From positions 46,257-110,256 of the IMG/VR virus record IMGVR_UViG_3300043788_000060: a DNA stretch of 64,000 nt; one strand, 5' to 3'. The translations under genes and the position numbers were made by a program. The stretch is from a virus. Below, in pieces: positions 197 through 5,953 of the stretch (position 1 is its first letter; each line of letters opens with the position of its first letter). A model generated the notes under the pieces. That model saw only the letters and a program-made list of their open reading frames with translations. It was not told where the DNA came from and did not search any database.

Positions 197-414
197 ATGA
201 GTTACTCTCCTACAAGTATCGTCACGAGCGGGGCGCTTCCGAACTTAGTCGCAATTCACTATGAGCGCGAAGCTGTTCCCAACCTCAAGGCGCAAACTCC
301 TTTCCTTTCCATGACCAAGCAGCGTCCGCTGCCGTTGCGGCAAGGTAACCAGATTCAGTTCTACACCTACGCGATCTTGGCTGCAAACCTGAACCAAGCC
401 GCTGAGGGAACCGT
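197..414 (+). CDS. Major capsid protein (N4-gp56-like family), exon 1; join(197..414,1472..2078,2297..2350,2573..2677), about 327 aa
   Basis: SD AAGGAG before ATG. MSYSPTS...KQRPLPLRQGNQIQFYTY...AEGTV continues in frame into GSPISESSTKIVATIGQYAD once the intron is removed. The exons total 984 nt, one open frame. Confidence 0.88.
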
Positions 415-461
415 GAATAAACCTGCGGTTCTAAAATTCGCCCAAATCCGTCAATACCTGT

Positions 462-489
462 TTGCAGAAGCCGCCTAGTGTGGTATAAT
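462..489 (+). promoter_or_regulatory. Sigma70-type promoter inside intron 1, upstream of the homing endonuclease
   Basis: TTGCAG-16 nt-TATAAT with extended -10 TGTGGTATAAT; the same motif recurs at other phage promoters. Confidence 0.65.
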
Positions 490-516
490 GTGAATAGACA
501 AGACGGAGGAAAATTC

Positions 517-1461
517 TTGCGAAGCGACATCCATCCCAAGCGTTGGGCTTTCATAGCCGGTCTAATTGACGGTGATGGAAGTTTCAGTATCCGATATGAC
601 AAAGAGTCCGGATATCAATTAACTGTTAACATATATTCGACATCGAGAAATCTGATGAACTGGTTGGTCAAGCTGATTGGTGGCCAGTATCGAAAGATGC
701 CTACGAAGGGCAATCGTAAACAGCGGTATGCTTGGTATTCAGGGAATTCAGAAATTCCCACCAATGTTGCTCCGTATCTCATTCTCAAGAAAAGTCAGGC
801 AGAGTCTTCCGTTCTATTCTTTAATCTTGGCTCAGAGAGAAATCCTCAAGCTAGAGAAGAATTGATGAGAGACATTCAAAATGCTAATGACTTTTATGTA
901 CCAGCCAATAAAAAAGATGTACAGGATAGTCGAAAAAATCCGATAGAACCCACCAAACTGGATTGGGCCTATCTCTCCGGATTGTTTGATGCTGAGGGGT
1001 CTTTCGGCCTCCAAAGGCGCAGCAAAAAGGGCAACGGTTCCTATACATCTTACGCACGAATTTCAAACACAGATAATCGGGTATTCTTGTGGATCGCGCC
1101 CCGCTTCGGCGGTCGGTTTTCGGTTACTACCAAGGAACACGATAAAGATGAAGGCGCATGGACGTTGTCCGGCTCCATCGGTTTAGAAGGAAGAAAAGAT
1201 CGAGAGAACAAACTCTTGGCTTTGGTTCCTTATCTGGTTGCTAAGAAAGAACGTGCGGTGCTCTTTATGGAGTGGATTAGAAATAACCACCTATTGACCA
1301 AAGAGCAAAAATTGGATTATTTTCTGAGAATGAAGGCGTTGAACAAACGCGGAATCTCTCTAGAGACTAATACGGCGAACTGTCCAGAAAATGGACAGAT
1401 GATAGAGTCCGATCCTGATAGCGATATCAGGTGCGACCCAGCAGTGATGTTGGAGTCCTAA
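517..1461 (+). CDS. Intron-encoded double-motif LAGLIDADG homing endonuclease
   Basis: Motifs FIAGLIDGDG and YLSGLFDAEG. TTG start at 517 follows SD GGAGG at 505-509. The track start at 478 falls inside the promoter. Confidence 0.9.
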   Translation: MRSDIHPKRWAFIAGLIDGDGSFSIRYDKESGYQLTVNIYSTSRNLMNWLVKLIGGQYRKMPTKGNRKQRYAWYSGNSEIPTNVAPYLILKKSQAESSVLFFNLGSERNPQAREELMRDIQNANDFYVPANKKDVQDSRKNPIEPTKLDWAYLSGLFDAEGSFGLQRRSKKGNGSYTSYARISNTDNRVFLWIAPRFGGRFSVTTKEHDKDEGAWTLSGSIGLEGRKDRENKLLALVPYLVAKKERAVLFMEWIRNNHLLTKEQKLDYFLRMKALNKRGISLETNTANCPENGQMIESDPDSDIRCDPAVMLES

Positions 1462-1471
1462 AACACAAATA

Positions 1472-2078
1472 AGGAAGCCCGATCTCCGAATCGAGCACCA
1501 AGATCGTTGCTACCATCGGGCAGTATGCCGATTTTATCAACAGTTCTGACTTGGCTCTCGACGTAGCAATCGACGATCCGGGTTTGCTCCAGAATCTGGC
1601 AAACGAACTCAACTACCGGCTTGCTCTTACCCTCAACTCTCTTGTCCAGATCACAGCGGACTCGGCAGTTGCGGTGGACTCGCTGGTCAACACACAACTG
1701 GCCAACGGCTCGTATCTGACGGCGAACAACCTTCGTTCGGCAGTTCAGTCGCTGGTATCGGTCAACGCACGGCCTCTCGTAAATAACTCCTACGGTGGAA
1801 TCATTCACCCGAACGTGGTACGAGACATCCTCAACGACACGTCTTTCAATGGTCTAACCGACATTGTAAAGCGCGATCCTGAGATGGCGAAGATGCTGTA
1901 CGAACTCCCGAAGAATGATGATGTTATCAAGTTCGCCGGGGTCACGTTCAAGCAAACAAGCACTGCGCCGACGGTGACCATCAGTTCGAACACGTATTAC
2001 AACACTTACATCTTCGGGGACGACGCGATTTTCAGCGTCTTCTTGGGCAAGAATCCCGAGGATGGATCGAAGAACTAT
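1472..2078 (+). CDS. Major capsid protein, exon 2
   Basis: GSPISESSTKIVATIGQYADFINSSDLALDVAIDDP...YGGIIHPNVVRDI...GVTF...KNY, typical N4-gp56-family capsid motifs. Confidence 0.9.
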
Positions 2079-2296
2079 TTGCAAAAAGTAGCTTGAGCGG
2101 GCAACTGCTCTCGAACAGACCGTAAATTCGGTGGAACCCTCACAGAGGCAATACCGAGCCAAGTCGCGAAAGCGGAAGGTGTAGAGACTAGAGACGGTCC
2201 TCCCTATGGGATGATAGTATAGTCCGGACTGCACAGCGATGTGCAGAGGCAAACAGAAATGATTTGCCCGTCCGAATAATGGACAGTAACAAAACG
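2079..2296 (+). ncRNA. Group I intron 2 (218 nt, no ORF)
   Basis: P1 CUAU/GUAG with U2078-G2088; P3 GACCGU/ACGGUC; P4 UUCGGU/ACCGAG; P7 GAGACUA/UAGUCC; P9 GCGA-loop hairpin; terminal G2296. Removal restores the frame (KNY-KLF). Confidence 0.92.
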
Positions 2297-2350
2297 AAAC
2301 TCTTCATCCAGAGTGCGCCTGAGCAGGGAAGTGTAAGTGATCCAGCACGT
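2297..2350 (+). CDS. Major capsid protein, exon 3 (18 codons, KLFIQSAPEQGSVSDPAR)
   Basis: Lies in frame between the terminal G of intron 2 and the P1 splice site of intron 3. Confidence 0.85.
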
Positions 2351-2572
2351 CAACTTTAGGCGTCACTAAGGCGAAATCCTTAGAAGAAAATTCTATCTAA
2401 TTGACTTGGAAGCTGAGAAGCCAACAAGGCGGAACCCAGAAATCGGGACCGTGAGAGACTAAACGATAGAACACCCTTTGGGGTGATGCGATAGTCCGGC
2501 CTCATACGAAATGAAGTATGAGAGGTGTGCAGAAATGACGCACCCCGTCCATTTTAGACGAGTAACATTCCG
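2351..2572 (+). ncRNA. Group I intron 3 (222 nt, no ORF)
   Basis: P1 ACGU/GCGU with U2350-G2360; P3 UUCUAUC/GAUAGAA; P7 GAGACUA/UAGUCC; P9.0 GG/CC; terminal G2572. Confidence 0.92.
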
Positions 2573-2677
2573 CAAATTGGAGGCTGGGTTTCTTACAATG
2601 TACGGTACACAAACACTTTGCGTCCGGGCAGCACAATGACGCTAAGACGTTTGCAATCAGAGACATCCAGTTCATAG
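2573..2677 (+). CDS. Major capsid protein, exon 4
   Basis: QIGGWVSYNVRYTNTLRPGSTMTLRRLQSETSSS-stop; the DP..Q.G.W pattern matches the C-terminus of this capsid family. Confidence 0.85.
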   Translation, partial: QIGGWVSYNVRYTNTLRPGSTMTLRRLQSETSSS

Positions 2678-2817: not shown

Positions 2818-3597
2818 ATGTATTACATCTATTTGGTAACGAATAAAGTCAACGGAAAGATTTATGTTGGTCAGACTGGGTTGACCATAGAGGAACGTTT
2901 TAAAAGTCACATCTGGTCTCGGAACAAGGACGATCATTTTCATGCGGCAATCCGAAAGTATGGAGAAGACGCTTTCGTCATCCAAGAGTTGGGCAAGTTC
3001 GAATCTCTCGAAGAAGCCAACAACGCAGAATCTTTGTGGATAATCTCCCTTCGATCCTACGACAGCAAAATTGGCTACAACACGAAATTTGGTGGCGAAA
3101 ACGGAGGAGCCCCCACCGAAGAAACAAGAATCAAAATCGGATTAGCAAGCAGCCAAAGAGTTCATGCTGCTGAGACTCGGGAAAAGATGCGAAATTCTCA
3201 TCTCAAACGCCAAGGAAAAACTACTTCCCACGAGGGAGTGGGGGTTTTTAAAGGACGTTTTCGGGCGAGAATCAAGATTCACGGAAAAGAAATTTCTTTG
3301 GGACAACACGATACCATTGAAGAGGCGGTTGAGTTTCGAAAAAAGAGTTTAGAACGGCTGAGCCAAATCGGACTAGAAGCTTTCACGGGAGAACTAGAAA
3401 TCTTCCGTAAAGAAGTAAACAAGAAAAGAATCGCAAACCGGCCTCACAGAGGACCTTTATCTGACGAAGAAAAGGAACAGATTAGTATTCGCACCAAGAA
3501 ACGATGGGCGAAGAACTTTAATTGGATGGACGCTCAATTCGTTTCTCCCTTTGTAACGGACGCCCAAACCCAGCAGAACGATCAGGTTGCATCATGA
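2818..3597 (+). CDS. Free-standing GIY-YIG homing endonuclease (NUMOD3-like and AP2-like DNA-binding parts)
   Basis: YIYLVTNKVNGKIYVGQT...GYN; EETRIKI and ETREKMR repeats; FRARIKIHGKEISLGQHDTIEEA. Confidence 0.88.
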   Translation: MYYIYLVTNKVNGKIYVGQTGLTIEERFKSHIWSRNKDDHFHAAIRKYGEDAFVIQELGKFESLEEANNAESLWIISLRSYDSKIGYNTKFGGENGGAPTEETRIKIGLASSQRVHAAETREKMRNSHLKRQGKTTSHEGVGVFKGRFRARIKIHGKEISLGQHDTIEEAVEFRKKSLERLSQIGLEAFTGELEIFRKEVNKKRIANRPHRGPLSDEEKEQISIRTKKRWAKNFNWMDAQFVSPFVTDAQTQQNDQVAS

Positions 3598-4447: not shown

Positions 4448-4714
4448 ATGTTTAAAAAGGTCCGCCTGAGCCTGCCTGCCTATTATTGCGTTCTTGGACA
4501 GTTCCCGCATTGTGACCAAAGAATTCTTCACGCCCGGGGCGAGTGCCAATATTGTGATAAGCACCCAGACTGGCAAGCTCTTCGGGAGGCGTGGGGAATA
4601 TCCTTTACTGGATACGAACCGGAAGACAAAGAATTGCCCTGTCCGGCGGATTATGCACGAGGAGATTCTCATAAGCTCTGGTATGGAAACGTAGCAGCGA
4701 AGGAGTCCGAATAA
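4448..4714 (+). CDS. Hypothetical Cys/His-rich protein
   Basis: SD GAGGAG; HC..H..CxxC. Confidence 0.65.
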   Translation: MFKKVRLSLPAYYCVLGQFPHCDQRILHARGECQYCDKHPDWQALREAWGISFTGYEPEDKELPCPADYARGDSHKLWYGNVAAKESE

Positions 4715-4950
4715 TGGACAAATTCAACCCATTTCGCAAGCTGGTCCCAAAGTCCAACCGAGTTGTCGGCGCAGTCAAAGCAATCCCGCTGTGGTTCCGG
4801 CCTAACATCAAACCGTGGGGTTACTACTCCGGAAGATTGGAAAGTCGTCCGGATTTCCGGAGACCGAACAGGGTACATCGAATCGAGATTTGTGCAGTAG
4901 TTTTTTACTGCATTTGCAGTAAAATGCCCGAGAGGGCCAAAACCAACTGA
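4714..4950 (+). CDS. Hypothetical basic protein
   Basis: TAATG coupling supplied by a copy of the 15-bp site. Confidence 0.4.
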   Translation: MDKFNPFRKLVPKSNRVVGAVKAIPLWFRPNIKPWGYYSGRLESRPDFRRPNRVHRIEICAVVFYCICSKMPERAKTN

Positions 4951-5940: not shown

Positions 5941-5953
5941 AGTGTGGTATAAT
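5926..5953 (+). promoter_or_regulatory. Sigma70-type promoter in front of the large ncRNA candidate
   Basis: TTGCAA-16 nt-TATAAT with extended -10. Confidence 0.7.

Follow-up and report, generated by a model that had tools for sequence, protein, structure and literature searches.

A phage capsid-gene group I intron with adenosine as its predicted last base, and A- and G-ending relatives at the same site

An interrupted capsid gene and its endonuclease genes

The window analysed here is a stretch of 64,000 nucleotides, bases 46257-110256 of a 110,256-bp IMG/VR phage record that CheckV rates as complete, and its start falls within the phage late region. At 197-2677 it carries an N4-gp56-family major capsid gene that is split into four exons by three introns (Table 1). 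A tblastn search with a full-length homologue recovers all four exons, and the product of exon 2 is 75-97% identical to proteins named by JGI as N4-gp56 family major capsid proteins. Comparison of the capsid product with Pfam gave no match, and BLAST of cultured phages returned nothing beyond short chance-like matches. The 110-kb genome encodes only this one capsid gene, so a viable phage has to excise all three introns. The last bases of introns 2 and 3, G2296 and G2572, directly precede residues demanded by the homologues, and L022, L021 and L078 carry intron 3 in the same position. The capsid family as a whole is a hotspot for introns: about 80 loci (L001-L125) contain 74 distinct group I introns, which occupy roughly 20 insertion sites, and a single gene carries as many as five (L085, L083, L078). 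Immediately downstream comes a free-standing GIY-YIG endonuclease gene (2818-3597, Pfam E=2e-10).

Table 1. Exons, introns and predicted intron 1 elements of the capsid gene (window coordinates; arrows here and in the text mark splice junctions)
Feature	Position	Strand	Basis
Exon 1	197..414	+	End ..GAG GGA ACC GU; 93% identical to full-length homologue P0005 in tblastn
Intron 1, group I, 1057 nt, predicted last base A1471	415..1471	+	Spliced alignment; weak Rfam RF00028; covariation
P1 hairpin, 5' splice site after U414, U414.G425 wobble	408..431 (408-414 with 425-431)	+	Sequence
P10 guide CCU, partner of exon 2 bases 1472-1474	422..424	+	Adjoins G425, contiguous with P1
P3 5' strand UUCGCC, partner GGCGAA 1374-1379	437..442	+	Compensatory changes
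P4 stem, 447-452 with 503-508	447..508	+	Sequence; one compensated version, UCUGUC/GACAGA, in L014
LAGLIDADG homing endonuclease ORF, inferred TTG start, stop 1459-1461	517..1461	+	Pfam LAGLIDADG_1
P7, enclosing P3' and P8 (1380-1386 with 1392-1398)	1363..1410	+	Pair counts
J7/9 bases A1412, U1413 (P9.0 partners U1470, A1469)	1412..1413	+	Pair counts, 28 family introns
P9 (1414-1420 with 1425-1431, GNGA loop) and P9.1 (1435-1442 with 1449-1457)	1414..1457	+	Covariation
P9.0 3' strand A1469, U1470 and predicted terminal (omega) base A1471	1469..1471	+	Homology, alignment, P9.0
Exon 2, first bases AGG form P10	1472..2078	+	tblastn; protein homologue search
Intron 2, group I, last base G2296	2079..2296	+	Rfam RF00028, 47.6 bits; homologue junction SKNY↓KLFIQ
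Exon 3, 54 nt	2297..2350	+	tblastn
Intron 3, group I, last base G2572	2351..2572	+	Rfam, 20.5 bits; junction DPAR↓QIGGW
Exon 4, including TAG stop	2573..2677	+	tblastn, 100% identity to P0005 C-terminus

The endonuclease gene of intron 1 matches PF00961 (LAGLIDADG_1, E=5e-12) and PF14528 (E=1e-9). A second motif, LSGLFDAEGSF, is visible in its translation, and the frame is open in all eight homologous introns. The ORF overlaps P6', P7, P3', P8, P9 and most of P9.1 (1348-1461); because it reads through these helices, about 110 nt encode both protein and ribozyme core. Upstream of the gene, P4 encloses the promoter-like TGTGGTATAATG (480-491), an extended -10-like box that is also found before the free-standing GIY-YIG gene (2728-2740) and at 5941-5952. 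The GGAGG ribosome-binding site of the gene shares bases with the 3' strand of P4 (503-508), so that the folded ribozyme may mask endonuclease translation. Such masking, like the promoter role of TGTGGTATAATG, is a putative function.

Ribozyme fold and reading of the 3' junction

Intron 1 displays several hallmarks of group I introns, namely P1 with a U.G wobble, a P3-P8 core including the P7 pseudoknot, a G-C pair beside a bulged A, and P10; the hallmark that it appears to lack is the near-universal terminal guanosine (omega G). None of the three introns is recovered by Rfam at the gathering threshold. Below the 50-bit cut-off, RF00028 gives intron 1 a score of 20.8 bits (1255-1431), next to the scores of introns 2 and 3 in Table 1; the intron 1 score is low because the ORF splits the ribozyme core.

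The fold is well supported by comparison with the homologous introns described below. The placement of the 5' splice site after U414 in the first-pass annotation of this DNA is supported by the P1 pairing and its wobble; the P1 guide CCUGCGGUUC is kept in seven of the eight homologous introns and compensated in the eighth, L103 (GGACCGU/GCGGUCC). Four compensated versions of P3 occur among the homologues (UUUGCC/GGCAAA, UCUACC/GGUAGA, UUUUCC/GGAAAA and CUCGGU/ACCGAG), and compensatory changes are likewise present in P8, P9 and P9.1, with two-sided changes at five pairs of P9 and six of P9.1. In the 3' domain (P7, P8, P9.0, P9 and P9.1), 96.1% of cells are paired, compared with 82.7 +/- 1.4% in shuffles and 30-44% with slid partners, and 16 of its 30 pairs have changed on both sides. 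The hairpin GUCC-GAAUAAU-GGAC, in this form or as a close variant, makes up P8 of intron 1 (1381-1397) and is found again near the 3' end of intron 2 (2272-2286) and in an intergenic position (4705-4719).

P7 consists of G1363-C1410, G1365-C1409, A1366-U1408, C1367-G1407 and U1368-A1406, with A1364 bulged, and is identical in A-ending and G-ending homologues. The presumed guanosine-binding pair, G1365-C1409, is present, as had been noted. The first-pass annotation had also set an altered 3' strand of P7 beside the terminal A. The alteration itself is real (GAGUCC at 1405-1410, UAGUCC in introns 2 and 3), but a link between the two is not supported: GAGUCC is found in every homologue at the intron 1 site, whether ending in A or G, and in 37 metagenome matches of a P7 pattern, some of them 23S rRNA introns of the family with a terminal G ahead of ..GGUCCUAAGGUAGCG. 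Its occurrence in G-ending members marks it as a trait of the family rather than a correlate of terminal A.

The 3' end of intron 1 reads ..ACACAAAUA (to 1471), AGG (1472-1474), AAGC, and the frame of exon 2 is set by the codon GGA at 1473-1475. Three candidate ends had been distinguished, and the sequence bears out what was said of each: an intron ending at G1473 breaks the frame, one ending at G1474 keeps the frame and removes a glycine, and one ending at A1471 gives GU↓A GGA AGC, that is, V G S. With the last of these, the joined cDNA would be ..ACCGUAGGAAGC.. and the peptide TVGSPI, with the glycine kept. The ligated exons expected for A1471 are GGGAACCGU-AGGAAGCCCGAUC, and those for G1474 are ACCGU-AAGCCCG.

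A query with the exon 2 protein found 272 relatives, of which about 80 full-length sequences (326-330 aa) were used for reading the junction. They read EGTV-G-SPI; glutamine replaces the glycine in two, and the residue is absent in none, so the homologous capsids answer the earlier question of EGTVGSP or EGTVSP with the former and never the latter. In a spliced alignment that tried all donor/acceptor pairs of the correct total length, two solutions were tied, GU414↓..A1471↓AGG and GUG415↓..A1472↓GGA, and both have a terminal A. Because the homologues need the glycine and P1 sets the 5' site after U414, exon 2 should start at A1472 and the last intron base should be A1471; P1 thus selects the first of the tied solutions.

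At capsid residue ~22 of L005, the junction that best fits homology (..CACUA↓..UUGU↓UGAA) is without U at -1 and has a terminal U, and the canonical one (..CACU↓..AUUG↓UUGAA) costs just one Tyr-to-Phe change, which indicates that a junction can be misplaced by one base if protein homology is used alone. In a search of RNA data, two metatranscriptome runs shared 6% of words, and the contigs over 150-2700 belonged to relatives 85-95% alike; no joint of the window's own sequence occurred in these two runs. At joints such as 414>1479, different letters stand between the flanks (for example, CGGCUCA), so their source is intron-free or spliced relatives.

Two further pairings point to the same base. 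J7/9 has the form G-A-N in this family; the partner of its A is the U just 5' of omega, and that of N is the next base upstream. The second pair is U-A, C-G, A-U, G-C or U.G across 28 family introns, and a complete two-pair P9.0 is present in all seven A-ending and 15 of 21 G-ending members. P9.0 of intron 1 had been proposed as a G-U pair; two Watson-Crick pairs, A1412-U1470 and U1413-A1469, describe it better and would make A1471 the base delivered to the active site. On the exon side, the proposed complementarity of AGG (1472-1474) to CCU (422-424) is confirmed, with the P10 pairs A1472-U424, G1473-C423 and G1474-C422. P9.0 and the 3-bp P10 (AGG/CCU) together support a model in which A1471 occupies the omega slot, and neither of them favours G1474.

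A- and G-ending introns in related capsid genes

Scans of IMG/VR and JGI metagenomes yielded seven more introns at the intron 1 site, 1057-1060 nt long. Three of them (L018, L023 and L079) end in ..AAGUA↓AGG and the other four (L014, which equals L019, L020, L113 and L103) in ..UG↓CGG, so that terminal A and terminal G fall at one aligned position. The comparison of 3' ends that the first-pass annotation had proposed therefore finds G or A exactly at the position of A1471. These introns are 59-89% identical to one another. The three A-ending ones were recovered from separate metagenomes and share 69-76% identity with the window; that an A recurs in this position in three diverged introns from independent metagenomes is more than chance and speaks against a sequencing error. 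Two of the G-ending relatives are 79-80% identical overall to the window intron, and closely related A- and G-ending ribozymes have identical catalytic-core strands. A further intron of the form ..AAAUG↓Y GGN is implied by P0004 (..QKQKC-GSPI).

The ORFs of several other relatives (P0001, P0006, P0007, P0010, P0096 and P0119) start with M-GSPI, that is, with NTG before GGN. As a third class of intron end, this pattern was searched for by a scan and found in none of the matches listed; the M-GSPI starts are probably a GTG Val codon miscalled as a start after an upstream interruption.

No ribozyme position was found that separates the A-ending from the G-ending introns. With the G-binding pair unchanged and no core covariation with the terminal base, there is no visible cause for tolerating A. 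P10 does differ: it has three contiguous pairs from +1 in all four A-ending introns at this site and a mismatched first pair in the G-ending ones. Counted more widely, at least three pairs from +1 occur in 5/5 A-ending and 9/43 G-ending introns (Fisher p=0.001), a hint rather than proof, as four of the five A-ending introns share one site.

On the endonuclease tree, the terminal-base label has to change at least four times, and the window clusters with L014 and L020, which end in G (97/97 support). The last dozen bases of the window intron and the start of exon 2 resemble the other A-ending introns, and the body of the intron resembles L020 and L014. A single origin of the A ending, which we considered, does not fit the label changes on the tree, although recombination at the 3' end is inseparable from repeated mutation; 3'-end recombination or co-conversion would be as likely an origin of the window's A as a repeated mutation.

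In the survey of capsid loci, 74 distinct introns have a homology-supported junction with U at -1. They end in G in 69 cases and in A in five, four at site 75 plus the intron of L120. Introns of the same family (GAUAGAGUCC) with terminal A lie at other capsid sites in L120, L096 (its second intron) and L140. The L120 intron, between ..GGIIH and PNVVRD.., ends ..CACAAUUA↓CCUAAU (..AAUUA↓CCU AAU, IIH↓PNVV) and has a 4-bp P10 and a UU/AA P9.0; there is no frame-keeping G within 20 bases on either side of its junction, and use of the first G in frame would cost eight conserved residues. The second intron of L096, at the site of L120 in a divergent capsid, ends ..AAUAAUA↓CCUUUU with a 6-bp P10 and likewise has no frame-keeping G just downstream. 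In L140, the intron of a distantly related capsid gene ends ..CAUUUA↓CAG, where P10 is CAG/CUG; its closest homologues read ETYDQLIFNV, so that the CAG codon is required, and a G also lies three bases downstream. The first intron of L096 (3760-3995, divergent capsid gene) has a 6-bp P10, AUAACC/GGUUAU, and a P9.0 of J7/9 GGA with UC; these indicate the junction ..CAGUCC↓AUAACC and thus a terminal C, the alternative being a G three bases upstream that adds one residue.

These comparisons bear on the possibility that G1474, three bases downstream of A1471, is the terminal base, that AGG is intronic and that the capsid is one residue shorter (EGTV-SPI). Terminal G is the rule in the survey and this end, too, preserves the frame; L140 likewise has a G at this distance. 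We nevertheless regard the G1474 end as improbable. It would remove a glycine that every one of about 80 homologues retains or replaces; P10 would be lost (A-U, then an A/C mismatch, and zero pairs in L018, L023 and L079), as would P9.0; the G-ending homologues splice exactly at the position aligned with A1471; and in L120 and the second intron of L096 the same terminal A occurs with no G just downstream that could take over the role.

Even less probable is that intron 1 no longer splices, either because the A is a disabling mutation in defective genomes or because it is an assembly or sequencing error at 1471. In model ribozymes, replacing the terminal G by A is disabling, and the window comes from a single metagenome assembly. 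However, contigs that are 24-31% divergent from the window and stem from three further metagenomes have the same A, the endonuclease frames are uninterrupted, and the genome is rated complete with its single capsid gene. In addition, the sister introns L023 and L079, both A-ending, differ by a compensatory pair change in P9.1, which indicates that selection preserved the fold in the A-ending state. A one-base rightward shift of both splice sites (GUG415↓...A1472↓GGA), with the same product, a terminal A and a 5' exon ending in G, does as well in the spliced alignment as the preferred junction but is the least credible of all, given the U414.G425 wobble at the canonical P1 position, the candidate junction with U at -1 in all 74 surveyed introns, and the P9.0 pairs that indicate A1471.

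Intron 1 (415-1471) is therefore best described as a mobile, LAGLIDADG-carrying group I intron that is very probably spliced at GU414↓...A1471↓A1472, with A as omega. The proposal of the first-pass annotation that intron 1 ends in A1471 is supported by the homologous capsids, the ends of the homologous introns, P9.0 and P10; we infer this junction from three independent kinds of comparison that agree.

Terminal adenosine in splicing

The terminal G of group I introns is usually called universally conserved, as it occupies the pocket of the guanosine cofactor. In the Tetrahymena ribozyme, exon ligation is strongly impaired when A takes the place of the terminal G. Engineered Tetrahymena ribozymes (1989-1991) pose the same question as intron 1, the recognition of the terminal base in the second step, and reportedly accepted a terminal A when the G-C binding pair was changed to A-U; in contrast, the G-C pair is unchanged here in both A- and G-ending relatives.

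How intron 1 might accommodate its A can be outlined from the predicted fold. The first step should be ordinary, with free guanosine attacking after U414, because P7 retains both the G1365-C1409 pair and the bulged A1364. In the second step, A1471 would be without the usual contacts of G in the pocket and would be positioned mainly by its neighbours, with P9.0 on the 5' side and a gap-free P10 from +1 on the 3' side holding the splice-site phosphate; exon ligation would then restore ..EGTV-G-SPI... The cost of the terminal A may be a slower second step, and its benefit may be less hydrolysis at the 3' site and less circularisation, as suggested for the ND5-717 intron. More broadly, we tentatively suggest, without giving it even odds, that this family of soil-phage capsid introns has relaxed the need for a terminal G, the 3' site being chosen by P9.0 and P10 from +1 and A and G being interchangeable with an unchanged G pocket.

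Terminal-A group I introns are rare exceptions, as the first-pass annotation stated, and the precedent is ND5-717, a hexacoral mitochondrial group I intron that ends in A and is spliced (PMC8146996, PMC6545197). A reduction of hydrolysis and circularisation has been suggested for its terminal A (PMC8146996). A 2025 database of 42,459 introns describes the last base as "most frequently" G. Like intron 1, ND5-717 combines a natural terminal A with an otherwise conventional compact core. Its hosts are sea anemones, corals and mushroom corals, and its removal gives ligated mRNA, whereas the phage junction is read from sequence. ND5-717 is obligatory, non-mobile and organellar, occupies one site, houses ND1 and ND3 within its P8 and undergoes unconventional processing (back-splicing) in some lineages, whereas the phage introns appear mobile, carry LAGLIDADG genes, interrupt capsid genes and exist in A- and G-ending versions at the same site.

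The td, nrdB and sunY introns of T4 and those of Twort and SPO1 resemble intron 1 in that they lie in an essential phage gene and self-splice (a prediction for intron 1), with an endonuclease ORF in a peripheral loop, a promoter-like site of its own and a possibly masked ribosome-binding site. In intron 1, unlike these, the ORF also overlaps the entire 3' half of the core. To our knowledge, all described phage group I introns end in G, and a limited literature check, in which the omega symbol was unsearchable, found no earlier phage or bacterial terminal-A group I intron. Intron 1 would thus be a further case among the rare known terminal-A group I introns, and what it appears to add is the coexistence of A- and G-ending versions of one ribozyme at one site.

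If this family has indeed relaxed the need for a terminal G, its A-ending introns would be the first phage or bacterial examples of self-splicing group I ribozymes with a terminal A. Related ribozymes would end in G or A at one capsid site, with the A ending at two further sites, and near-identical natural G-ending partners allow direct comparison. A swap of G and A at omega, or gain and loss of the +1 pair of P10, would make a simple test system for how the second step picks its site, and this system could also reveal if side reactions such as hydrolysis, circularisation and reverse splicing become less frequent with a terminal A. Annotation tools and databases that assume a terminal G would misplace the junctions of such introns or call the capsid gene broken.
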